Assembly: GCA_027310185.1 (NCBI GenBank)
Contig: DAIDBH010000014.1
Location: forward strand, 160,001 to 224,000
Direction: 5' to 3'
DNA from: Thermoplasmatales archaeon
Lineage (GTDB): Archaea > Thermoplasmatota > Thermoplasmata > Thermoplasmatales > Thermoplasmataceae
DNA: 64,000 bases
Shown: in pieces, positions 749 to 18,296 of the stretch
How the letters are laid out: every line of letters starts with the position of its first letter
Numbering within the stretch: the first letter of the stretch is position 1
Notes under the pieces: model-generated
The model's input: only the letters and a program-made list of their open reading frames with translations
Database searches by the model: none
Told to the model about the DNA's origin: nothing
Translations under genes and position numbers: made by a program

Positions 749-2023
749 TTACTTAGTTTCTACTTCCTGGCAGAGACCGGCGGCAACAGTTTGCCCCATA
801 TCCCTAATTGCAAATCTACCAAGTTGAGGGAACTCCGCAACCTTTTCAATCACGAGTGGTTTGTCTGGCACTACCTTAACAACTGCTATATCTCCTGTCT
901 TTATGAACTGCGGGTTGTTTTCCTTTGTTGTACCATCCTTAGGATTAATTGTCTTTATAAGCTCTTCAAACCTGCAAGCAACCTGAGTTGTATGCACGTG
1001 GAAGACTGGCTTGTAACCAACTGCAATAACACTTGGATGGTTTAGAACTACTATCTGTGCTGTGAATGATTTAGCTACGGTTGGTGGTGCATTAAGTGGT
1101 CCACAAACATCTCCTCTCTTTACATCGTTTTTAGCTATTCCTCTTACGTTGAACCCGACATTGTCTCCTGGTTCTGCCTGAGGTAGTGACTCATGATGCA
1201 TTTCCACGGATTTTACTTCACCCTGCTTGTTGGCTGGCATGAATATAACCTTGTCTCCTGGTTTTATAATTCCAGTTTCAACTCTTCCTACAGGAACAGT
1301 TCCTATTCCAGTTATAGAATAAACATCCTGTACTGGAAGTCTCAGAGGCTTGTTTGTTGGCTTCTCTGGAACCTTTAATGATTCGAGTGCCTCCAATAGT
1401 GTGGGTCCACTGTACCATTTCATATTTTCTGATTTTTTCGTGATGTTGTCTCCCTTATAACCGCTGATTGGGATTATTGGGAAATTCCTGTAACCAACAG
1501 ATGCCATGAACTTCTCTATCTCGCCCTTAACTTCTGTAAATCTCTTTTCACTGTAAGGTGGCTGTACAGAGTCCATCTTGTTTGCAAGTACTATGATCTG
1601 CTGTACTCCAAGAGTCTTTGCAAGGAATGCATGTTCTCTTGTCTGTGCCATTATACCTTCTCCTTCCCTTGCAGATATTACAAGCATAGCTGCATCTGCC
1701 TGGCTTGTCCCGGTAATCATGTTCTTGACAAAGTCTCTGTGCCCGGGTGCATCAATGATAGTGAAGTAGTACTTATCTGTCTCAAATTTTCTATGAGATA
1801 GATCAATCGTAACTCCCCTTTCTCTTTCCTCTTTGTACCTGTCCATTACCCAGGCAAACTCGAACGTAGCTTTTCCCTTTTCATCGGCCTGTTTCTTGTA
1901 ATCATCGATTATATGCTGTGGAATTTCACCGTGCTCGAACAGCAGTCTTCCTACTAAAGTCGACTTTCCATGATCAACATGCCCTATCGTTACCAAATTT
2001 ATGTGTGGTTTTTGTCCTGCCAT
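749..2023 (-). CDS. tuf: Elongation factor EF-1alpha
   Basis: [43 protein letters not shown]; GGTGA RBS upstream. Confidence 0.99.
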
Positions 2024-2310
2024 TTATTCACCTTTTACTTATTTGAGTTATCCCGTTAGAGGATTTTATTTATTAAACTCTTCGTACGGTAATTTATAAT
2101 AGTTATAATAGGTTTTCCAATTGCTTTCACTTTTAGTTATCACTAAATCAGTTTCACTAATCAGGTGCTGGAATATGATAACTGTGTATGTCCTATACAT
2201 GAAGAAAGTTCTCAGGTGGCTTTTGAAAATAGTACAACCTTAATAATCGAAACATTTAATTTCACTGTTATTATTTCGTAAAGTTTAAAGTACACCTTTA
2301 GAGGGATTGA

Positions 2311-2955
2311 ATGGCCGGAGAAAGATCAAATAAGAGAACAAAGGATAAGTGGAAAGAGAAAAAGTGGTACAGGATTATGGCTCCAAGTCAGCTTGGAGGT
2401 AAGGAAATAGCAATGACAGTGGGTACTGGACCCGAGGGCATAAAGGGAAGAGTAGTTGAGATTCCCATATCAGATTTTTCTGGGAACTTTAAGAAATCAA
2501 ACGCCAAGCTTGAGTTTAAGGTTTTAGACTGTGTTGGAACAAAATGCAGTACGATTTTTGTTGGTCATTCTGTTAATGACGATTATATAAGAAGAATGGT
2601 TAGAAGAAGAAAGGAGAGAATAGATATCGTAAAGGACGTGAAAACCACCGATGGTTACGAGTTCGTTCTTAAGGTTGTTGCAGTCACAGAAAACAAGCTC
2701 ACATCAGCTAAAAGTGTTGAGCTAAGGAATGCAATTACTCAACTGGTTGCTGATAAAGTTAAGAATATGGATTACTTTGAATTTGCGAGATTTATAATAG
2801 AAGACGAATCAGTATCAGAAATACTCAATGGAGTCAAAGATATATATCCACTTAAAAAACTTGAATTTAGGAAGTCAGAGCTTACAAGCACTGGGGAGAA
2901 ATACAACTTTTCAGTTCCTGAAGATGCTCCGGCAGAGGAAGTTCCAGCTCAATAA
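2311..2955 (+). CDS. rps3ae: 30S ribosomal protein S3Ae (eS1)
   Basis: KDKWKEKKWYRIMAP...DYIRRMVRRRKERID...IYPLKKLEFRKSE. Confidence 0.95.
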   Translation: MAGERSNKRTKDKWKEKKWYRIMAPSQLGGKEIAMTVGTGPEGIKGRVVEIPISDFSGNFKKSNAKLEFKVLDCVGTKCSTIFVGHSVNDDYIRRMVRRRKERIDIVKDVKTTDGYEFVLKVVAVTENKLTSAKSVELRNAITQLVADKVKNMDYFEFARFIIEDESVSEILNGVKDIYPLKKLEFRKSELTSTGEKYNFSVPEDAPAEEVPAQ

Positions 2956-2973
2956 TCTAAAACCATTTTTAGC

Positions 2974-3062
2974 GCCGGGGTGGCTTAGTAGGTGGAGCGC
3001 CGGACTCATAAGAATTTTTCTGAGAAATCCGGAGGTCTCGGGTTCGATCCCCGATCCCGGCA
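2974..3062 (+). tRNA. tRNA-Met(CAT), elongator type, with a 16-nt intron (3011-3026) at position 37/38
   Basis: Acceptor GCCGGGG/TCCCGGC-A, anticodon arm CCGGA-CTCATA^A-TCCGG, T-loop GGTTCGATCCC; bulge-helix-bulge formed by CTCA/TGAG. Confidence 0.93.
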
Positions 3063-3196
3063 TACAGTTAAAGGTTCAATGTCTCGTTAGCATTTTTTGA
3101 ATGATTCTGTTTTTAATGTCTTGGTAAGATTTGAACTTACAAAGAATGATTGGAATCATAATTGGTGAAATAGAAAACAAATATTTATCTCAATAT

Positions 3197-9269: not shown

Positions 9270-10427
9270 ATGAAGCTGTATAAGTTGAGTGGAAGGAATA
9301 GCATTATTCTGCTTCTAGGTCTCAGGGCACTGTACTCGATGAACTGGTACAATGTATCCCCGATGCTATTCAATATAACCACAACCTATGGTGTCAGTTC
9401 CTCACTTTCTGGCCTTATTCTTTCTGCATTTCTCATAGGTACAGGTCTCTTCCAGATTCCATCAGGACTTGTAGCCTCAAAAATAGGCTCAAAAAACACA
9501 GCCCTGACAGGAATGGCAATCATGTCCATAGCTGCCACAACGTCCCTTGTTTCTCCTGATTTCACAATTTTCCTGGTAACAAGATTCGTTGTAGGCCTGG
9601 GATCTGCATTCTTCTTTTCATCCGGTATAGCCGTTCTCAATGATATCGATGAAAGAAATGTAAGCAGGAATATTGCAGCATTCAACACGGCGTTTTCCAT
9701 TGGAGGAGGTTTCGGCGTGGTCGGATTTGCATACTTCCTACAGTTTACCTCCTGGCAGAACCTCCTTGCAGCTGGAGGTATTATAACACTTGTTCTCACC
9801 ATAGTCTCATTCGTACTTATCCCGGATATGAGTGCAAAGAGCGATAAAAAGAAGGAATTCGGGAGGAACGTATATCGGAGGCTCACATCGAGGCCATTAC
9901 TGCTTCTTTCAATGTCCCTTGCGGGCTACTGGGGATTGAATTTTACATTTGAAGAATACCTGCAGCCCTTCGCAGAGAAACTTGGTTTCAGTGGACCAGT
10001 CTCAGGATTCATAGGATCATTGTCCCTATTTGCAGGTATTCTTGGAATGCTGCTCTTCGCCTATTTTTCAAGCAAGAAGGCATCTGTTGTACTCCCTTCA
10101 CTTGTCATATTTATCTCAGCAATACTGGCCCTTCAATTCTTCGGGCTGTCATACTACCTGTTCCTTACGGCAATACTTGGTGGAAGCATAAGCGTAATAA
10201 TATTTTCACTTGAATATTCCTATGTCGTGAAGTTAGAAACGGAAAGGCAGTTTGTGGCCCTTGGAATATCAATTATGAATGCACTTCAAATTGCAACCGG
10301 GTCTGCCATTACATTCCTGTTCGGCTACCTGTTCTCGGTGAACGCAGATCTTTCCTGGATAATTCTTGGAATAATCGCCCTGGTCTTCCTTCCAATGGGA
10401 TTTTCTGTCATGAAGCAGAGAGGTTAA
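9270..10427 (+). CDS. MFS transporter
   Basis: Multiple TM helices; QIPSGLVASKIGSK motif A variant. Confidence 0.87.
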   Translation: MKLYKLSGRNSIILLLGLRALYSMNWYNVSPMLFNITTTYGVSSSLSGLILSAFLIGTGLFQIPSGLVASKIGSKNTALTGMAIMSIAATTSLVSPDFTIFLVTRFVVGLGSAFFFSSGIAVLNDIDERNVSRNIAAFNTAFSIGGGFGVVGFAYFLQFTSWQNLLAAGGIITLVLTIVSFVLIPDMSAKSDKKKEFGRNVYRRLTSRPLLLLSMSLAGYWGLNFTFEEYLQPFAEKLGFSGPVSGFIGSLSLFAGILGMLLFAYFSSKKASVVLPSLVIFISAILALQFFGLSYYLFLTAILGGSISVIIFSLEYSYVVKLETERQFVALGISIMNALQIATGSAITFLFGYLFSVNADLSWIILGIIALVFLPMGFSVMKQRG

Positions 10428-11656
10428 TTATTGTGCTCCCTCATGTTAACTTTCTTCCACAGTGGTATGAATGACAGGAAGAAAATTGTACCTATTATGG
10501 TGAAAGGATACCATATCAGGCCAAGATCAGCTGAGAATATGGTGAGGAAGAATGTCCCCAGCACAGGTGCAATTGGTGTAACCATTCCTGAAAGTACCTG
10601 AAATGATGTGAAATACTGCCCCCTTTTATTAACAGGTGCAATCCTGCTTATGACTGTATTGATTGATGGTGAAACAATATTTTCACCCATAGTTATCAGA
10701 ATTGTGTCCAGTACCAGGAAGGTGAATCCCCTGAAGAAAGGCAGTAAGGAGAATGAAAAGAGATACACAATATAGCCAAGATTGATCCTGGTGATATCTT
10801 CCATCTTCTTCAGCAGCCTGTTTATGGGAAGCTGGCCTAAAGTCACAACAACCCCGTTAACAGAATAGAGCAAGCCTATGTCAAAATCCGTCATGCTGTC
10901 AAATCCCTTCCAGAAGAATGTGAGTGTTGTTCCCCATTGACCTAAAATCAGGTAAAATAATGAAATCAGAATGGCAACTATGAAGAATGGCCTGTCCTTG
11001 AAAGCCTTGAAGATATCCGGTTTCATGTTCACTGAGTCTTCCTTTTCATTCTCCCTTTTTATCTGCTGCTTTTTCAGGAATTTTGCATAGATAAACAGTT
11101 CCGAGAATGAGAAAACGGTCGTTAGGAGGAATATATAGCCATAGCCTATTCCTGCGATGAAACCTCCAATGGCTGGACCCAGTGAAAACCCAAGATTCTG
11201 AAGTATTCTGACAATACTGAACGCTGAGTTTCTCTCTGATACTGTTGAATTGTCTGAAACAATTACATTATCTGCGGCGCCAATTATGTTCATAAGCGGC
11301 TCGCTCAGGATGAGTACGAGATAGATCAGATAGAGGTTGCTGTTTTCAAAGATCAGCAATGTCAGGGAAAGAAGGAGGAGACCAAGAAATATATTTGATA
11401 TGATGATTACAGATCTGGCACCTCTCTTATCGATGAGACCGCCTGCCACCAGTGTTAAAGGAAGTGAGGATATTGCCATTAGAAATACTACAAAACCGAT
11501 GATGAGGTAAGGGACATGCCTTATTACAAGAAGGTAGAGAGGCAGGAAAATCCACATTTGCGATCTGGCAAATACTCTTATGAACTGGTTTGAGGCTACA
11601 ACGGCAATACCGTTCCTCCTGAAAATACTTATAGTTTGGTTACCTGATTGTTCCAA
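10424..11656 (-). CDS. MFS transporter
   Basis: GGLIDKRGAR motif A; NLGFSLGPAIGG; about 12 TM; TTG start uncertain. Confidence 0.87.
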   Translation of the reverse strand: MEQSGNQTISIFRRNGIAVVASNQFIRVFARSQMWIFLPLYLLVIRHVPYLIIGFVVFLMAISSLPLTLVAGGLIDKRGARSVIIISNIFLGLLLLSLTLLIFENSNLYLIYLVLILSEPLMNIIGAADNVIVSDNSTVSERNSAFSIVRILQNLGFSLGPAIGGFIAGIGYGYIFLLTTVFSFSELFIYAKFLKKQQIKRENEKEDSVNMKPDIFKAFKDRPFFIVAILISLFYLILGQWGTTLTFFWKGFDSMTDFDIGLLYSVNGVVVTLGQLPINRLLKKMEDITRINLGYIVYLFSFSLLPFFRGFTFLVLDTILITMGENIVSPSINTVISRIAPVNKRGQYFTSFQVLSGMVTPIAPVLGTFFLTIFSADLGLIWYPFTIIGTIFFLSFIPLWKKVNMREHNN

Positions 11657-11728
11657 GCGATTCAGAGCCTCATATCAGTGAAGCATATAAGCCTGATTTC
11701 AAAGTTAGAACGTAGTAATAAGTTAATT

Positions 11729-11749
11729 CTGTTTCGTGACTTTACATCT
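11729..11749. repeat. Target-site duplication copy 1 (CTGTTT) plus terminal inverted repeat
   Basis: ctgttt|cgtgactttacatct. Confidence 0.9.
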
Positions 11750-11819
11750 ATTTTAATTTTGTAGACTTCCCAATATGATTTTCAGGCTGTTTTTCTAAAC
11801 CACTATTGTGGGTGCACTA

Positions 11820-12221
11820 CTATTTCAATACCTGATCAAGTTTCATGATCATTCCAATCTTCCTTCCCGTTTCTGACTTGAAATCCAATCTCTCGCTCAC
11901 CTTTTTTCCCCTGGCAGCATATACAACCATTATATCTTTCATAACATCAACTGTTGATGGAAGAGATACGCTCTTCTCTGTCCTGTGCATTTCATTATAT
12001 ATCAGTGAAAGGAAAAGATAGGCAAGAAGAGACATAAACATGTGAACCCTAATCTTCTGTGGAGTTCTGTGATATACTGGAAATGCAATGCCCATGCTGT
12101 TTATTGTGCGGAAGCAGTGTTCCACCCTGTTTCTTTTCTTGTAGAGATCAATTATCCCAGCAGGATCCATATCCATGATGTTTGTGAATATGGCATTCTT
12201 TCCCATCATGGATAAACGTTC
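11820..12221 (-). pseudogene. IS1634-family DDE transposase, C-terminal fragment
   Basis: GKNAIFTN...IIDLYKKRNRVEHCFRTI...PVYHRTPQKIRVHMFMSLLAY (Y-x2-R-x3-E-x2-FR signature); N-terminal/central part missing. Confidence 0.85.
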
Positions 12222-12515
12222 GAAGAGATCCAAAAAGCCTATTTCAGGATGAAGACTGATAATCCATCACTTTACAAATTCCTGGAACGAGCGACGGACG
12301 ACCTCAAGCAAAACCCTTTCTGTGGTATTCAGATGCCAAAACGGCAAATACCGAAAACCTACGTGAGCAAATATGAGGTCAACAACCTGTGGAAATACAA
12401 CTTACCCAACGCCTGAAGGTTAGTTTATTCAGTTGCCGGGAGCGAAGTGGAAATAATTGCAATTCTGCTGGAGTGGTTTCCTCACAAGGAATATGAGAAG
12501 AGATTCAATTATTGA
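12222..12515 (+). pseudogene. RelE/ParE-like toxin pseudogene (5'-truncated, in-frame TGA at 12414-12416)
   Basis: Manual translation EEIQKAYFRMKTDNPSLYKFLERATDDLKQNPFCGIQMPKRQIPKTYVSKYEVNNLWKYNLPNA*RLVYSVAGSEVEIIAILLEWFPHKEYEKRFNY*. Confidence 0.65.
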
Positions 12516-12753
12516 AATTTGATGACGATTCTCTGGATTAACCACAGTCTAAATTGATTTTACAAAAATAAACGTGATATACTTTGAGATTGTTTTTCCA
12601 AAGGCGACGCTAACGTTTCCGAGGTACAGATAGTACCCACTTAATTGATTAAGGGAATAATTAACTTTAGGGTTCAGGTCTATCCTTCTTATGTGAAAAT
12701 GATGTTTCATTCACTAAATTAGCACTTTGATTGACACTGATTAACCTCACTTT

Positions 12754-13060
12754 TTACAACTTCCAGGATGTGAGTGAAAGTCCCAACGCAATAATTACGC
12801 TGACTCCCGAAACTAATGGCAGCATTGATAGGGAAAAGTAGCCGAATAGACTTCCGCCCAAAACGATTCCCAGAGCTATACCTATGTACAACATTGAGTT
12901 GTTAATAGCAAGGGCAGTTTGATGAGAATTTTTCGGCGAAAAATAGACCACCCTTCGTAACTGGGAAGGCATAAAGCCCAAAAGCAATCCATAGTGGAAG
13001 GGGTACACTTTCTATGAGCAAATACACGCCAAGTAGAATACCATAAACCGAAAACACGGG
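12754..13060 (-). pseudogene. C-terminal fragment of an MFS (DHA1-like) transporter, frameshifted
   Basis: PSQLRRVV...ALAINNSMLYIGIALGIVLGG resembles MFS TM10-12; upstream hydrophobic stretch lies in another frame. Confidence 0.6.
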
Positions 13061-13061
13061 A

Positions 13062-13415
13062 TCACGAACGCAATTGGCGTGTCATAGAATCTTTGCTTCT
13101 CATTAAAATGAGATATTTCATGTGGGTAAACGAAGCTAATAGAATCAGAGGAAAATAGGAAGCAATAAAAACCCATTGAGCTTGCTCTACTGAAGGCACG
13201 TAAACCGTCTCCAAGAGTACATGTCTGAAAATATAGAGCTCAAGCACGGTGACTATTGTAGCTACAACCATAATTGAAAGAGTCATTTTTTCGTAAAACG
13301 CTGCCCTAATAGGAACCGAAGTACGAAAATATCTGAAAGCGAGGCAAAAAGCCGCTCCTCCCTCGATTGCGAGAAGTAAAATCCAAAAATAAAGAAGTTG
13401 GATAATAATTGTCAC
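13062..13415 (-). CDS. Small 3-TM membrane protein (candidate immunity protein)
   Basis: Hydrophobic ORF directly behind the stop of 13420..14550; probable GTG start at 13415 (ORF track extends to 13451). Confidence 0.6.
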   Translation of the reverse strand: MTIIIQLLYFWILLLAIEGGAAFCLAFRYFRTSVPIRAAFYEKMTLSIMVVATIVTVLELYIFRHVLLETVYVPSVEQAQWVFIASYFPLILLASFTHMKYLILMRSKDSMTRQLRS

Positions 13416-13419
13416 CTTC

Positions 13420-14550
13420 TTAACTAAACCAAACCCAGTTTCCGCTACCATAATCGCTTACAAACTGATTATTAACGCTGGAAACCTCAGCACTGAAAGT
13501 GACTCCCATGATACCCCCATAGGCTACAAATGGTACGTTATACCAAAAAGTATAAGAGTTTCCATTGGAGTTCAAACCATATAGACCAACAGATGATGCA
13601 AACGTACCTACAAGTGTAATCCATGGATAAAAGTAATCATTAACGAAATCCAGATGGATATAAGAAAAGCCAGTGCTTTCATAGTAGCTAAGCATTGTTG
13701 AAGCCTCATACAATAATCCCACGCCTACAATTATCAGAGCAGCTCCAATTGCTTGTGCCAAGACCGGAACCGGTATGAAAAGTGCGACCAGCCCTGCAGC
13801 AGCCAATCCATATCCAGCGTATGTAGTTGTACTTTCCCAATTATTGAAAAACGATTGAGCAGCAGAACCTGTAAATTCCACATTGTAGTTATCATTTTCA
13901 CCATACGTTAGAGACCATCCCCCAAGGTACCACGGGGCGTGATAAACATAATAATTAATGTTGACCCATACCCACGGGTCTATCACGCTACCAGTAGGCG
14001 TAGTAACGTTCACTGCCCATACTTCATACTGGGTTCCATTAAAGTTCGCTTCGTATAACACGCTATGGTCATGAAATGTTCCCTGAGAAGTGACAGTAGA
14101 AGTATTTATTTCGTTAATCGGTGTTCCAGAATAAACAACCTGCTCCTTTAACTGCAAGGATTGCTGGGCACTTTGAGCATTTGAATAGTTATTTTGTTCC
14201 TCACTGGTAAGAATCTGAAGATACATTTCCGCCGTCTGATTTTGACTTACAAATTCTTGAAACAATGCGATTGATGCATTCGTGTTTTGAATGCCTTGTG
14301 CTTGTCCATTAGACTGCAACCAATTTAAAAACAGAGTGGCTATCGAATTTTCTGTTCCACTCTGATTTTGTGTAGTAAATGTGGCAGCTTCAAAGTTAGG
14401 CGAATATCCGTTAACAACATGAGAATTGGAAGTTTGAACCAAATCTGAATTGCTTGTAACAGGAGAGAACCACAAAGCAGAAAGAGCAACCACTACAATC
14501 AGAGAAATAGATATTATAAGTTTTCCTCGGAGGCCATTTTTTAAGTTCAT
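13420..14550 (-). CDS. Secreted protein with C-terminal hydrophobic hairpin (candidate archaeocin/toxin precursor)
   Basis: Basic n-region MNLKNGLRGK plus h-region; N/Q/S/T-rich N-half with 7 N-glycosylation sequons; hairpin GLAAAGLVALFIPVPVLAQAIGAALIIVGVGLLY; function inferred. Confidence 0.7.
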   Translation of the reverse strand: MNLKNGLRGKLIISISLIVVVALSALWFSPVTSNSDLVQTSNSHVVNGYSPNFEAATFTTQNQSGTENSIATLFLNWLQSNGQAQGIQNTNASIALFQEFVSQNQTAEMYLQILTSEEQNNYSNAQSAQQSLQLKEQVVYSGTPINEINTSTVTSQGTFHDHSVLYEANFNGTQYEVWAVNVTTPTGSVIDPWVWVNINYYVYHAPWYLGGWSLTYGENDNYNVEFTGSAAQSFFNNWESTTTYAGYGLAAAGLVALFIPVPVLAQAIGAALIIVGVGLLYEASTMLSYYESTGFSYIHLDFVNDYFYPWITLVGTFASSVGLYGLNSNGNSYTFWYNVPFVAYGGIMGVTFSAEVSSVNNQFVSDYGSGNWVWFS

Positions 14551-14817
14551 AAATTATTATCACAATACAACGTATATAGTTATGGATACGTTATGAAGCG
14601 TTCCAGCCTGGGAGAGTTCGGTGTCATACAATGCAACACCAAAAAATAATAGATATTTATTTCGTTTATGGCGTTTTCCTTTTCTTTTTGCCTACTTTTT
14701 CGGGAAAAATTATGGTCGAAGAAATCCGCTAATCTGCATTAATCAAAAATGCGGGTCTCTGAGAATCCCCTTTCTTGGTGAAACTTCTTTCTAAGAAGTT
14801 TGAACAAGAAATAGAAA

Positions 14818-15210
14818 TTAACTATTATGAGAAGGATGATTTAAATATGCTAACCTAACTGCGATTAAAACTACTATAATCAGGAACGCTTGAAGTATCA
14901 CAACTGCAACTATATCTGTGAAGCCTCTTAGATAAAGATATAGTTCTATCTCTGATAACATTATAAAGAGTAAAGTTAGTAACGAGGTGATATTAACAAA
15001 ACTTGAGAAACCATATCCATGTTTTTTACCACCGAAATAACCCAGACTATTCATAAACAAAAGCAAGAAAAGCCCAATCAGTAAAAAGAATAGAACAATG
15101 CTTTCCAAATTTAAGTTCTTAAATATGGTGAATAATACCGATAGTAATGAAATACTTGCGAGAGCCTCTGATATTGTGTAAAATTTATTAAAGAATTTAG
15201 CATTTTTCAA
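14818..15210 (-). CDS. Small 4-TM membrane protein (candidate immunity protein)
   Basis: Four hydrophobic segments; TTG start 10 nt after the upstream stop, with AGGTGG RBS. Confidence 0.65.
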   Translation of the reverse strand: MKNAKFFNKFYTISEALASISLLSVLFTIFKNLNLESIVLFFLLIGLFLLLFMNSLGYFGGKKHGYGFSSFVNITSLLTLLFIMLSEIELYLYLRGFTDIVAVVILQAFLIIVVLIAVRLAYLNHPSHNS

Positions 15211-15220
15211 GTAAGACCAC

Positions 15221-15691
15221 CTAACAATCCTGCGTTAGTAGAATGGCCTCTGCTATTGGCAGAATATTGATAATCGCATACAGAGCAATACACCCAAATA
15301 TGTCTCCAGAAAAACAAGCGACTGCAGCAGCAACAAGACCTATGCCTGTGACGCCTAATGATGCAATTTCTGCGAGGCAAGCAGCCAAGTTTCCATCAAT
15401 AAGGTATACCCCTGTCATAACTACTTTTTGTTTCAGAATGTGGTCTGGTGTAATTTTTATAAAAGAAGTCAACGATTGCGCTGTAAGTAGATAATAGATG
15501 CCAAGGGTTGTTAATGTTTTATTTCCACTTTCTAGATATTTCATGGATAGTGAATATATACCGGACTGTATGCTTAGAAGCTGCCCATACAAGTCGGAAC
15601 TGAAATTGGTGATGAGTACGTCCCCTAAATGTAAATCTCTCCCTTGATTTGGTTGAAAGGCAATTGCCATCACAGATAATAGTGCACCCAC
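15221..15691 (-). CDS. Probably 5'-truncated secreted precursor with Cys-stapled hydrophobic C-terminal hairpin (bacteriocin/halocin-like)
   Basis: C105-x20-C126-x7-C134-x21-C156(C-terminus); residual hydrophobic N-terminus (FVS)VGALLSVMAIAF without a basic n-region. Confidence 0.6.
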   Translation of the reverse strand: MGALLSVMAIAFQPNQGRDLHLGDVLITNFSSDLYGQLLSIQSGIYSLSMKYLESGNKTLTTLGIYYLLTAQSLTSFIKITPDHILKQKVVMTGVYLIDGNLAACLAEIASLGVTGIGLVAAAVACFSGDIFGCIALYAIINILPIAEAILLTQDC

Positions 15692-15806
15692 ACTAACAAA
15701 CTCTTCTCTCTAAATACATTGTGTACATATGAAAATACTGTGTACCCACAGACAGATTTACAGAAAATAGCTAAATTGCGTGTTCCATGATATACTAATA
15801 AAAAGA

Positions 15807-15827
15807 AGATGTAAAGTCACGCTGTTT
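15807..15827. repeat. Terminal inverted repeat plus target-site duplication copy 2 (CTGTTT)
   Basis: agatgtaaagtcacg|ctgttt. Confidence 0.9.
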
Positions 15828-15834
15828 TCTTAAA

Positions 15835-16947
15835 TTATCTGATTTCCTTTATGGTATTTGGAGGTAGATATGCACATGATGGATCTGATTCAAGGAAATT
15901 GCCTGTTTCTACATATGCCCTTGCCCTTGATCCTCCACACACTCCATTGAACTCACATGATGCACATTTCCCCATAAGCCGCCCCGTATCACTGATCTCT
16001 TTTAGAACATGGCTCGCCCTTATGATGTCCTTCAGGTTCTGTTCCCTGACATTTCCAATGGACAGGTTGAAGAGGCCTGATACTGAGACTTCACCGGTAG
16101 AAGAAACGAAGAGTGTCCTGATTCTTCTTCTGGGATTGTACTGCTCCGGAATTTCCAGATCGAATATATCAATGCCAGTGAGCTTCCTGGTTTCCACTGC
16201 CAGGGCATTGAGAAGCGTTCCACCTTCCATGTATCCCTTTCGTATGGTCTCGATCTCTATCCTGCTTATTTCAGGCGCCTCTACAGTTCTTATGGAACAG
16301 CCTGCTACCTTCAACATGTACAGGTATTTGAGCACATCTTCCATTTCCTGTGATGAAATTGGTTCCTCTGAAATGCCTCTTCCTGTCTTTATCAGGAAGA
16401 ACAGTTCCCATATGTTTATGCCAAGTTCCCTCAGGGTATGAAAGATGAATGGCAGGTCCATTATATTTCTCTCCATTACAGTGGTATTTATCTGTGTCTT
16501 GATCCCCTCTGATTTGATCAGGCTTGCCAGTTCTACAGTTTTCTTGAACGAACCCCTCCTGTTCCTTATATGGTCGTGAGTTGACGGAATACCATCAAGA
16601 GAAAGAGATATGGAACTTACACCGTATTCCTCCATCTGGAATATCTGATCCACTGTCATAAAGTCTCCAGCTGAGGGGCTCACGGAAAAACTCAATCGCA
16701 GTCTGGATGCATCCAGCAGGATGCTTGCGAAATCCGGATGAAGCAATGGGTTACCACCTGTAAAGATGATGTGTGGTATTCGATCCATTGAGGAAGAGAG
16801 GTTTTCCAGCAATTTCCTGATTTCATAACCTTTCATCTCTTCCGGACTGACTTCAGTGATGGAAGAGGCCCTGCAATGTACACAACTATAATCGCACGCT
16901 TTTGTTAATTCAATAAACAGTAAGTCCGGTGAATACTCTCTTTCCAT
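15835..16947 (-). CDS. Radical SAM/SPASM domain protein (TIGR04053/NirJ-Ahb-like)
   Basis: ELTKACDYSCVHCRA, FTGGNPL, C-terminal GKCASCEFNGVCGGSRARAY...DPSC. Confidence 0.88.
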   Translation of the reverse strand: MEREYSPDLLFIELTKACDYSCVHCRASSITEVSPEEMKGYEIRKLLENLSSSMDRIPHIIFTGGNPLLHPDFASILLDASRLRLSFSVSPSAGDFMTVDQIFQMEEYGVSSISLSLDGIPSTHDHIRNRRGSFKKTVELASLIKSEGIKTQINTTVMERNIMDLPFIFHTLRELGINIWELFFLIKTGRGISEEPISSQEMEDVLKYLYMLKVAGCSIRTVEAPEISRIEIETIRKGYMEGGTLLNALAVETRKLTGIDIFDLEIPEQYNPRRRIRTLFVSSTGEVSVSGLFNLSIGNVREQNLKDIIRASHVLKEISDTGRLMGKCASCEFNGVCGGSRARAYVETGNFLESDPSCAYLPPNTIKEIR

Positions 16948-17114
16948 AATCTCTCTATAAGCCGTATAAATAAATAGTAATACCCCAATATGTTAAGGTA
17001 AATTATTTCTAGCAGACAATATAGAAATAGCAAAACTCAATTTATACGGACATAGTATTGTTTCCGGAGTCCGTTGAATAGATAATAATTTAAATGTCAT
17101 ACACATGTCATACC

Positions 17115-18296
17115 ATGGATTTGCTGGTGGTTTTCATCACTGGATTTGGTTCAGGTGCCATTGTTTCATCTGTACTTTTCTATCTCCATTTCAGGAAAAA
17201 ACCCAGCCTTTCAGTGGATCGGGATATAATTAAGTCAATTTCTGTAGATGTCCTGAAGGAGGCCAGTGAGCAGAATATAAAAATGACAGAAAATCTGCTG
17301 AAGAGTGTTTCATACAATACCGCATCCATATTTGATGAAAAGAAATCCGAAATTGATTCGCTGGTCATCCCACTGAGGGATGAACTTAAACATTACAGGG
17401 AACAGATAGAGAAGATAGAGAATATCAGGAGAGAAGATTACGGAAATATAAGGAATTTCCTGGACACAATTGGTGAGACAACATCCAGGATAAGACAGGA
17501 GACACTTGCGCTGAACCAGATGTTGAAAAATTCCCAGTCCAGAGGTAGATGGGGAGAGATAACACTGAGGAAGATTGTGGAAAATGCTGGACTCACAGAG
17601 CACATAGATTTTGAGGAACAGGTACAGGGTACCGGAGGTGAGAGACCAGACATGATAATACACCTACCGGGTTCCAAGGAAGTTATCGTGGATTCTAAGG
17701 CCCCATACAAGAAATTCATAGAAGCATTCGAAGAGGAGAATCCTGAAAAAAAATCTGAAATAATGAAGGAATTTGCAGCGGATCTGAAAAAACAGATAAA
17801 GAACCTGAGCTCTAAGCAATATTATGAGAAGGTGCCAGGCTCATTCCAGTTCACAGTAATGTTCCTGCCCCATGAAAGCATGCTCAACGGTGCCATTGGA
17901 ACAGATCCAGAAATTCTGGATTATGCACTATGGAACAACATAGTACTGGCCACCCCACTTACCTTCTTTGCACTCATGAAGGTGATCCAGATGTCATGGA
18001 AGGAAGATTCAATGCTGAGAAATTCTGGAGAACTGGTGAAAATATCCGGGAATATCTATGAGAGAATGAACGGGATGTATGAACGGGTTGAAAGGATTGG
18101 GAAAAATATAAATTCTCTCGTAAAGGATTATAATTCGCTTATTTCATTCAGTGAAAGCAGGGTCCTGCCATCACTTAGAAGAATGAACCAGATAGGCGAG
18201 CTTGGGAAAACTGAAACAATGTCTGGCAAGGAATTGGAAGAATTAACAAGGGAGCCCGTTGCTGAAAAGTGGAACGCAACAGAAAGAACAGATTAA
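17115..18296 (+). CDS. rmuC: DNA recombination protein RmuC
   Basis: N-terminal TM, coiled coil, RGRWGEITL, RPDMIIHLPG, VIVDSKAP, FTVMFLPHE, ATPLT; start at MDLL. Confidence 0.92.
   Translation: MDLLVVFITGFGSGAIVSSVLFYLHFRKKPSLSVDRDIIKSISVDVLKEASEQNIKMTENLLKSVSYNTASIFDEKKSEIDSLVIPLRDELKHYREQIEKIENIRREDYGNIRNFLDTIGETTSRIRQETLALNQMLKNSQSRGRWGEITLRKIVENAGLTEHIDFEEQVQGTGGERPDMIIHLPGSKEVIVDSKAPYKKFIEAFEEENPEKKSEIMKEFAADLKKQIKNLSSKQYYEKVPGSFQFTVMFLPHESMLNGAIGTDPEILDYALWNNIVLATPLTFFALMKVIQMSWKEDSMLRNSGELVKISGNIYERMNGMYERVERIGKNINSLVKDYNSLISFSESRVLPSLRRMNQIGELGKTETMSGKELEELTREPVAEKWNATERTD

Follow-up and report, generated by a model that had tools for sequence, protein, structure and literature searches.

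The stretch of DNA examined here, called the window throughout, comprises 64,000 nucleotides from a Thermoplasmatales archaeon (GenBank assembly GCA_027310185.1, contig DAIDBH010000014.1, positions 160,001 to 224,000), and our subject is a pair of adjacent genes within it, A and B. An earlier note, made from the letters of the window, had proposed that A encodes a secreted archaeocin and B its immunity protein. We find that A and B form a self-contained two-gene cassette, which belongs to a family restricted to the Thermoplasmata and is carried here as cargo of a decayed insertion sequence (IS) element. Neither the A nor the B family is described in the libraries searched. The pair, in window coordinates, consists of:

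13062 to 13415, minus strand: small partner gene B, 117 amino acids (aa) from a GTG start, with three hydrophobic segments, a basic loop 1 and a basic tail

13420 to 14550, minus strand: large gene A, an open reading frame (ORF) of 376 aa, with a predicted layout of N-terminal hydrophobic segment, Ser/Thr/Asn linker, helical domain (63–141), beta-sheet (143–227), helical hairpin (228–292, with its hydrophobic core at 245–283), and strands plus a helix (297–367)

14573 to 14578, minus strand: TATATA box, read from the sequence, 23–28 nucleotides (nt) 5′ of the ATG of A

Judged by the spacing rule for archaeal TATA boxes, the position of the TATATA before A is consistent with a leaderless transcript. 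The predicted protein begins with MNLKNGLRGK, followed by a hydrophobic stretch in which the top 19-residue Kyte-Doolittle window scores 2.53 (aa 5–33), and a second hydrophobic region, at aa 245–288 (score 2.36), is broken by the residues FIPVPVLA. The earlier note had described a Sec-type N-terminus and an internal Gly/Ala hairpin with a PVP break, and both descriptions hold, as does the near-absence of Lys, Arg and Cys, there being one Lys, no Arg and no Cys beyond residue 33. At 1.1%, the Lys plus Arg content of A is lower than that of any other ORF of 200 aa or more in the 1.88-Mb genome (1169 such ORFs, median 12.2%). The ORFs ranking next above it are mostly N-terminally anchored and rich in sequons, and A itself has seven N-X-S/T sequons.

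Two starts are available to B: an ATG at 13451, giving 129 aa and overlapping A by 32 nt, and a GTG at 13415, giving 117 aa and lying 4 nt past the stop of A. The orthologue in the related genome G005 likewise has a GTG start 4 nt past the stop of its A gene, which favours the GTG for B and agrees with the small membrane gene, starting 4 nt after the large one, that had been described earlier. The hydrophobic segments of B begin at residues 1, 45 and 81 and score 2.11, 2.13 and 1.54, the third being weaker. Sixteen B proteins have a common architecture and not one invariant residue. B has no family in Pfam, NCBIfam, PADLOC or PHROGs, and the 16 small partners have no common family in Pfam, the best match being MFS_1, found in two members. 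With 117 aa and three segments, B fits the description of colicin immunity proteins in size and number of transmembrane (TM) segments (about 110–180 aa, 3–4 TM segments, beside a large gene); as for membership, neither B nor the 16 small partners belong to a known immunity family in Pfam or NCBIfam.

The genome carries four A paralogues, 26–37% identical. A profile built from these found 58 clusters among 1.84 billion representative proteins, 49 of them at E ≤ 1e-10, and all the named hits are from Thermoplasmata. A word-indexed search returned 11 proteins, some sourced to a Thermoplasmataceae archaeon or Ferroplasma sp. Type II, and a species-representative collection held nine A loci, all in metagenome-assembled genomes (MAGs) of Thermoplasmata, Thermoplasmatales or Ferroplasmaceae. 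Among 41 genomes of the order, our own included, 13 have matches to A, with 0–5 copies each and many internal stops. The matches are confined to one family, where they occur in 12 of the 24 other genomes; none was found in the 16 genomes of six other families. A has no Pfam or NCBIfam family: with the threshold set at E ≤ 1, Pfam had just two matches, Bax1-I (E 0.023) and SdpI (E 0.38), which fall far short of the cut-off, and a scan of 37 A members at E ≤ 0.01 gave no match to a shared domain, Big_1 and Invasin_D3 being matched only in the C-terminal extension of one member, P0040. In this 651-aa protein the Ig-like region is followed, at residues ∼510–651, by a terminal segment that begins with Cys and that, by eye, we take to be like a Hint-type autoprocessing domain; Pfam gave no match to such a domain at E ≤ 0.01.

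To take a census of the gene pair, all fetched loci from our own genome and its relatives were pooled and identical copies removed, leaving 33 distinct places. A was scored as intact where a single ORF of at least 340 aa had both the N-terminal hydrophobic segment and the hairpin, and an intact partner was a multi-TM ORF (at least two TM segments) no shorter than 95 aa, whose start lay between −80 and +60 nt relative to the stop of A. The genomes in this census are related, so that kin are not independent, and several are incomplete MAGs. A is intact in 15 of the 33 places and has its partner in all 14 that are assessable, the fifteenth lying at a contig end. In the other 18 places A is degenerate, and 11 of these keep an intact partner. 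Pairing is thus seen in 25 places (14 with intact and 11 with degenerate A), far beyond chance, and all four pairs of our own genome are intact. No assessable intact large gene lacks the small one (14/14), while small genes often occur where the large gene is broken or absent. Such a pattern is what one expects of a toxin and the gene for immunity to it. The toxin/immunity-like layout that had been proposed for the locus is supported by this asymmetry and by the orphan and tandem small genes described below. The contrary case named by the earlier note was that homologues of A would prove to be core, invariant proteins with no linked small membrane gene; we find them accessory, patchy, multi-copy, often decayed and almost always linked to a small 3-TM gene.

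The asymmetry is most pronounced at G005:C19, where three degenerate A genes lie within 9 kb, each followed by an intact small gene. Three small genes, 111, 105 and 117 aa long, are arrayed there one after another. Two of the A remnants have internal deletions, which remove roughly residues 100–319, and the third is a C-terminal fragment; all three lack the sheet and the hairpin. A deletion of the same kind arose independently in P0037 and P0038, and a similar one is found in P0058. In these three proteins and in L051 (1921–2388 and 10525–10944), which come from different subfamilies, the first 60–100 residues are joined to the last 40–80, and sheet and hairpin are gone. At G013:C14 two tandem small genes follow a 40-aa remnant of A. 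A profile of the G005:C19 small-gene subfamily found this pair and, in both G009 and G010, an orphan small gene, in each case 54 nt after the same 205-aa gene and preceded by GGAGGTGA. No A remnant was found beside these orphans at a hidden Markov model (HMM) E-value of 0.01 or below, and G010, whose genome is 72% complete, has no A match at all in the 41-genome scan. Between the two orphans (L055 2677–2991 in G009:C33 and L056 2255–2455 in G010:C61) the synonymous divergence (dS) is 0.045 over 66 codons, with five non-synonymous and two synonymous changes, and that of the adjoining 205-aa gene is 0.345. The counts are tiny; the orphan small gene may have been exchanged recently.

The pair also turns over as a unit. 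Over 30.6 kb the related genome G011 matches the window at 99.2% identity, and it has the window's element as well. Nevertheless, of the pairs in our own genome only that of the window has an identical counterpart in G011. The closest G011 relative of the pair at L003 is 79% identical in A and 55% in B and has unrelated flanks; the alignable block runs from ∼22 nt before the start of A to just past the stop of B. Homology between L005 and L006 likewise stops at the edges of the gene pair, and that between L020 and L021 covers 1460–3135 only, which is the pair with ∼30 nt upstream and ∼130 nt downstream. L006 (G011) and L007 (G012) are 99.9% identical over 4161 bp, whereas G012 is 83–85% identical around the window, which suggests recent exchange between diverged genomes. 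At the edges of the cassette block in L006 (G011:C4) lies a 35-nt inverted repeat, 74% complementary (1482–1516 and 3093–3127). A flanking repeat pair was absent from the three other cassette loci checked, and this one may be either chance in AT-rich DNA or a trace of cassette movement.

The ratio of non-synonymous to synonymous divergence (dN/dS), calculated between L005 and L006, is 0.20 for A overall and 0.42 for B. Within A the sheet has a ratio of 0.06 and the C-terminal ectodomain one of 0.09, against 0.28 in the helical domain and 0.32 in the hairpin. Both genes are therefore under purifying selection, which indicates that A and B are real, functional genes, and constraint is weakest at the hairpin and in B, where contact between A and B in the membrane would lie. 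Averaged over all pairs in the window's subfamily, identity is 0.18 in the linker and 0.30 in the helical domain, and rises to 0.65 in the first sheet, 0.63 in the hairpin and 0.61 in the C-terminal part. The earlier note had anticipated a conserved N-half and a variable C-half, and the reverse is seen.

We modelled A with AlphaFold2 (AF2). An alignment of 11 sequences gave a poor model, with a predicted local distance difference test (pLDDT) score of 51, and we used instead the model from an alignment of 37 sequences (pLDDT 76.3, predicted TM-score 0.67). In this model the N-terminal helix is of low confidence and the Ser/Thr/Asn linker is disordered. The helical domain (63–141) is followed by five to six strands (143–227), a hairpin of two ∼30-residue helices (228–257 and 263–292), and three strands with one helix (297–367). 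The hairpin helices are thus predicted to be flanked by strands (143–227 and 297–340), with no amphipathic helices there. The hairpin is kept in all 37 aligned members, is rich in Gly and Ala (17–39% together), and is bounded by a largely conserved Asn and a Y-E-S motif. D220, in a Y-G-E-x-D motif, is invariant across the 37 sequences; the idea that this conserved motif marks A as an enzyme was dropped, as it had no support from family or fold.

A hairpin that is strongly hydrophobic and that, in the model, juts from a beta-sheet and is not enclosed in a bundle of helices speaks, with the Sec-type start, for an integral membrane protein and not for a soluble secreted bacteriocin. A is therefore probably membrane-integral, and the freely secreted, colicin-like form in which it was originally cast is not sustained. 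From the distribution of charges, the N-terminus of A would be cytoplasmic and both ectodomains outside, and B would have its N-terminus out and its C-terminus in, with the basic loop 1 and basic tail in the cytoplasm. One partial metagenome protein (P0055), in which the C-terminus of A is joined in frame to a B-type protein, agrees with both predicted topologies.

Searches with the model of A gave no informative relative. Foldseek found no match in the PDB at E ≤ 0.001, with the sheet and helical domains not searched alone, and the viral structure library BFVD likewise gave none at that threshold. With VIA-align, the best of 48,161 chains had a Z of 9.0 (2ch7_A, 65 residues, root-mean-square deviation (rmsd) 1.5). 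This and the other top rows are confined to the hairpin (228–297) and are generic hairpin matches; the row for the AhlB pore (Z 8.4, 72 aligned, rmsd 2.3) is level with those for unrelated hairpins. When the top 1000 Foldseek chains were re-examined, the best Z was 7.3, for the tetraspanin CD53 (67 aligned, rmsd 2.9), which is below the noise level of the tool, and the ESM Atlas yielded no lead (best feature score 0.81, best TM-score 0.29). Complex prediction for residues 140–376 of A with B scored 0.01 and 0.00 against a mark of 0.32, and carries no weight either way on binding.

The reading we favour, at slightly less than an even chance, is that A and B make up a toxin/immunity-like conflict cassette in which B protects against A. 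A would enter the membrane by the Sec route, with its short basic N-terminus inside and its ectodomains, a variable helical domain and a conserved, aromatic-rich beta-sheet, outside the naked membrane of a wall-less cell, and the long Gly/Ala-rich hairpin would span that membrane. As a membrane-acting effector, A would damage or permeabilise membranes by means of the hairpin, and B would be the cognate protector within the membrane, binding or capping the hairpin. Being probably bound to the membrane, A would not diffuse to other wall-less cells but would get to them through membrane contact, fusion or shed vesicles, and cells would keep, collect and exchange B genes in order to remain protected. 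Whether all of this amounts to an undescribed class of weapon in kin conflict among wall-less acidophilic archaea, namely a polymorphic membrane-integral hairpin protein passed by contact, fusion or vesicles and neutralised in the membrane by a rapidly diversifying 3-TM immunity protein whose orphan genes are hoarded, is more doubtful.

A number of results weigh against a toxin and its immunity protein. Seven of the 18 places with a degenerate A have no partner by the criteria of the script, although one of those so scored, L052, has atypical membrane ORFs of 193 and 181 aa downstream. The retention of B elsewhere could be due in part to its three-fold smaller mutational target. All the dN/dS values are below 1 and so do not demonstrate positive selection, and the strong conservation of the ectodomain (0.06–0.09) suggests a conserved extracellular job. 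The A remnant and the B of G005, set against the window genes, give similar ratios (0.43 and 0.39), which is uninformative. No significant match to a toxin or immunity protein was found for A or B in Pfam, NCBIfam, PADLOC, PHROGs or PDB sequences. In five long relatives of A (582–1220 aa) the C-terminus is extended by arrays of repeats, and one of the five matches Big_1 weakly (E 4.8e-5); they look like proteins of surface display or adhesion. No release or delivery device is encoded nearby, and the hydrophobic hairpin and Sec-type start predict that A is retained in the membrane of its producer. Finally, the in-frame A–B fusion would suit the members of a complex as well as it would antagonists.

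Several of these points are what would be expected if A and B were subunits of a harmless surface complex, serving adhesion, cell–cell recognition or contact with episymbionts or substrates. A would then be a displayed glycoprotein and B its membrane chaperone or anchor, and the changes in copy number and the divergence would represent surface variation. Such a complex would account for two ectodomains predicted outside with no cytoplasmic domain, for the seven N-glycosylation sequons and the extreme, acid-exposed composition, and for the purifying selection on the ectodomain, and it would be at ease with the repeat arrays, the single weak Big_1 match and the fusion. In a related cultured genus the cells are described as bounded only by a cytoplasmic membrane, AglB is encoded and IS1634 elements lie in genomic islands (PMC5155288), and its cells are described in tight contact with ARMAN-type cells (PMC5498576), a setting that suits the toxin/immunity-like reading as well. 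A structural partner should not, however, persist, multiply in tandem or stand alone, as B does, nor would one expect 18 of 33 large genes to be decayed, homology blocks to end at the two genes as in selfish modules, or 16 small partners to lack any conserved residue. A surface complex explains the ectodomain and the long forms and leaves the orphan and tandem small genes unexplained; it is the main rival, though we consider it rather unlikely.

The same mobility can be read in terms of defence, with the pair keeping out viruses or parasitic DPANN cells, which must dock on the bare membrane. In that case A would serve as an exposed sensor, a decoy or an abortive-infection pore, and B would restrain A or itself block entry. 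A patchy, mobile, multi-copy and fast-turning distribution is typical of defence islands, the locus of another gene pair in G014 (D/C, described below) adjoins an ORF that by eye is like a Dam-type methylase, and high viral load and defence islands are described for the related genus (PMC5155288). We nevertheless think a defence module improbable: PADLOC gave only weak, low-complexity TM matches (tm_4, E 6.6e-4, and Csx27) for one small paralogue, none of 76 pattern matches to A in viral contigs was confirmed, nothing links the locus to known virus receptors, and arrays of orphan B genes would be unexpected if B merely restrains A. The tight coupling in every intact locus (a 4-nt gap or an overlap) and the cassette behaviour would also suit a two-component membrane-active agent, as in the sulfolobicins, or an intracellular addiction module that stabilises its DNA. 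Both are very improbable, because the existence of orphan and tandem B genes speaks for a B that acts by itself and because an addiction toxin would have no need of a large conserved ectodomain.

Among the closest known systems, pore-forming colicins of the E1 and A types have a hydrophobic hairpin inside a bundle of about ten helices, and their small immunity proteins, with 3–4 TM segments, are believed to act by helix–helix contact in the membrane. A and B are like these in the Gly/Ala-rich hydrophobic hairpin, proposed as the membrane-active element, in the small multi-TM protein encoded beside the large gene, and in the carriage of the module on mobile DNA. Unlike a colicin, A has a hairpin that is predicted to protrude from a beta-sheet ectodomain and is not buried in a ten-helix bundle, and neither A nor the 37 members match the Pfam Colicin channel domain. 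Nor do the fold searches list a colicin, although that absence is no evidence in itself. With its Sec-type N-terminus and two further membrane passes A is probably membrane-integral, not released by lysis, and its host is an archaeon with no envelope to cross. Polymorphic toxin and contact-dependent inhibition systems have a downstream immunity gene, orphan immunity genes, a conserved N-part and a variable C-terminal toxin domain. The likeness here lies in the small gene directly downstream, in several divergent pairs per genome, in orphan and tandem small genes, in fragments of large genes followed by intact small genes, and in horizontal transfer. The differences are that A has no variable C-terminal tip, its N-half varying and its C-half being conserved, that neither a secretion-system marker nor a repeat shaft nor a pre-toxin domain was found, and that A is predicted to be a three-pass membrane protein. 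The layout thus resembles that of a colicin with a membrane immunity protein and the genomics resemble those of polymorphic toxin loci, and the pair falls outside the membership of both.

Among archaeal toxins, which offer precedents for the favoured reading, halocin H4 has a precursor of about 359 aa, and the protein itself, some 35 kDa in size, is believed to target membranes. It is like A in its signal-like N-terminus, its internal hydrophobic region and its similar precursor size, and unlike A in having one short TM stretch (residues 179–194) and no two-helix hairpin. No Pfam or TIGRFAM model for halocin H4 is reported to exist. When the six frames of Haloferax plasmid pHM300 (NC_017943), where the halH4 gene presumably lies, were searched with the 37-member A profile, the best match, in a 792-aa frame, had an E-value of 0.185, a result that does not strictly exclude homology; no product named halocin occurs in two 50-kb annotation stretches of the plasmid. 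The internal TM region of H4 is described as essential for killing, and Sec-type H4 homologues are described in two Thermoplasmata MAGs, with a conserved neighbour that sits upstream, unlike B, which is downstream (bioRxiv 10.64898/2026.07.27.741052). Beyond these homologues we found no description of archaeocins of Thermoplasmatales in the literature searched. Sulfolobicins are described as vesicle-associated products of a two-gene operon that inhibit related strains, SulA and SulB being membrane- or vesicle-associated (PMC10117752), and we compare them with A and B by their two-gene layout alone. In contrast to the roles proposed for A and B, sulfolobicin activity requires the two proteins together, and neither of them is known to confer immunity; Sulfolobus has an S-layer, unlike the wall-less host of A and B.

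To our knowledge almost nothing is known of archaeal fighting or recognition outside the haloarchaea and Sulfolobales. The pair is a testable candidate: it has just two small genes, a single genome offers four intact natural variants of it, ‘immunity-only’ strains exist in nature, and the bare membranes of these organisms make membrane-to-membrane delivery plausible. If A and B are indeed such a weapon in kin conflict, no contact- or vesicle-dependent toxin/immunity system would have been defined in Archaea before them, and they would be the first Thermoplasmatales archaeocin family built on new protein folds. If they are not a weapon, they are still an uncharacterised mobile membrane-protein pair without Pfam coverage that varies between genomes 99% identical over 30 kb, and would mark strain-level surface diversity in acid mine drainage communities.

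The element that carries the pair, and the other features within it, are as follows (the repeats, duplications and hairpin being unstranded):

11729 to 11734: left copy of the target-site duplication CTGTTT, read from the sequence, with a single homologous hexamer in the empty site of G012

11735 to 11763: left terminal inverted repeat of the IS1634-derived element, a 29-nt arm 79% complementary to 15793–15821

11804 to 11823 and 15676 to 15695: subterminal inverted repeat pair, 90% complementary

11820 to 12233, minus strand: IS1634-family transposase remnant, the C-terminal 137 aa (NCBIfam NF033559, Pfam DDE_Tnp_1)

12754 to 13008, minus strand: fragment of a major facilitator superfamily (MFS) transporter, 84 aa, cargo debris (Pfam MFS_1, E 5e-5, below cut-off, profile positions 101–166 of 347)

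14771 to 14811: hairpin between the two gene pairs, just past the stop of C130, with 19-nt arms, 89% complementary, and a 3-nt loop

14818 to 15210, minus strand: C130, an intact 130-aa membrane protein with four segments, the small partner of the D/C family

15221 to 15691, minus strand: D′, a 156-aa chimera of the transposase GTG and its first 4–5 codons in frame with residues ∼157–310 of a 310-aa protein

15793 to 15821: right terminal inverted repeat of the element, 29 nt

15822 to 15827: right copy of the target-site duplication CTGTTT, from the sequence and the empty-site alignment

The element is 4,087 bp long (11735–15821), IS1634-derived and decayed. That the pair lies on a mobile element, as the earlier note had stated, is confirmed by the inverted repeats, the CTGTTT at both ends, the transposase remnant and the empty site in G012, where window positions 9276–11710 match up to 1364739 (85%) and positions 15825–18292 match from 1364761 (83%), so that the flanks of the element are ∼21 bp apart. 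The transposase remnant matches NF033559 at E 5.4e-22 and DDE_Tnp_1 at E 1.2e-7; its score of 78.5 bits for NF033559 is under the 100-bit cut-off because only profile positions 356–466 of 483 remain. An intact relative in G013 (L058) encodes a 503-aa transposase and has the same subterminal repeats ∼1.5 kb apart. In the window, transposase codons ∼6–367 are replaced by ∼3.4 kb of cargo, consisting of a stretch with a 55-aa ORF, the MFS fragment, B, A, C130 and the truncated D, of which A, B and C130 are intact. The hairpin at 14771–14811 is a putative terminator. Our own genome holds no second assembled copy of either end of the element. The ends (15665–15838 and 11732–11875) recur at 89–99% identity, for the best matches, at many contig ends of G013 and G014, so that the element must be active or abundant in those genomes. 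The cargo stretch at 12222–12602, which includes the 55-aa ORF (12249–12416, plus strand), has nucleotide matches of 77–78% in G002 and G003. By eye we take this ORF to be like the N-terminal half of a RelE/ParE-type toxin; Pfam gave no match to it.

The second pair, D/C, lies beside A both in the window and in G013. Full-length D (310 aa; L028, G013) starts with a hydrophobic segment at its N-terminus, continues with an ectodomain and has a hydrophobic region of two segments at its C-terminus; a four-segment membrane protein of 130 aa comes after it. In the window a tblastn search with D covers residues 157–310 only, and comparison with the intact IS copy and with the 310-aa protein places a short microhomology at the junction of D′. 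As the transposase GTG is fused in frame to the D remnant, D′ could still be expressed from the transposase start. The D family numbers nine proteins and is present in six of the 41 genomes; intact copies of D occur in G013 and G003, the G014 copy has a stop, those in the window and in G011 are truncated, and that in G008 is fragmentary. Homologues of C follow D in G013, G014 and G003 with 59–71% identity, and C diverges more than D (64% against 86%, and 59% against 77%). Kinship of the two pairs was rejected, the hhalign probability being 0.2% in both comparisons, D with A and C with B. The earlier note had spoken of a layout repeated twice; a second pair does exist, with C130 intact, but it is of a different family and its large gene is truncated. 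Two unrelated pairs of the same layout, side by side, suggest a common theme, and D/C counts as a neighbouring analogue in favour of the conflict-cassette reading of A and B.

At G014:C2 (L027 3981–5923), ORFs of 201 and 432 aa adjoin D/C, both rich in Ser, Thr, Tyr and Asn, and the 201-aa ORF has an N-terminal hydrophobic segment. The methylase-like ORF mentioned above, of Dam type by eye, lies on the other side of D/C at this locus.

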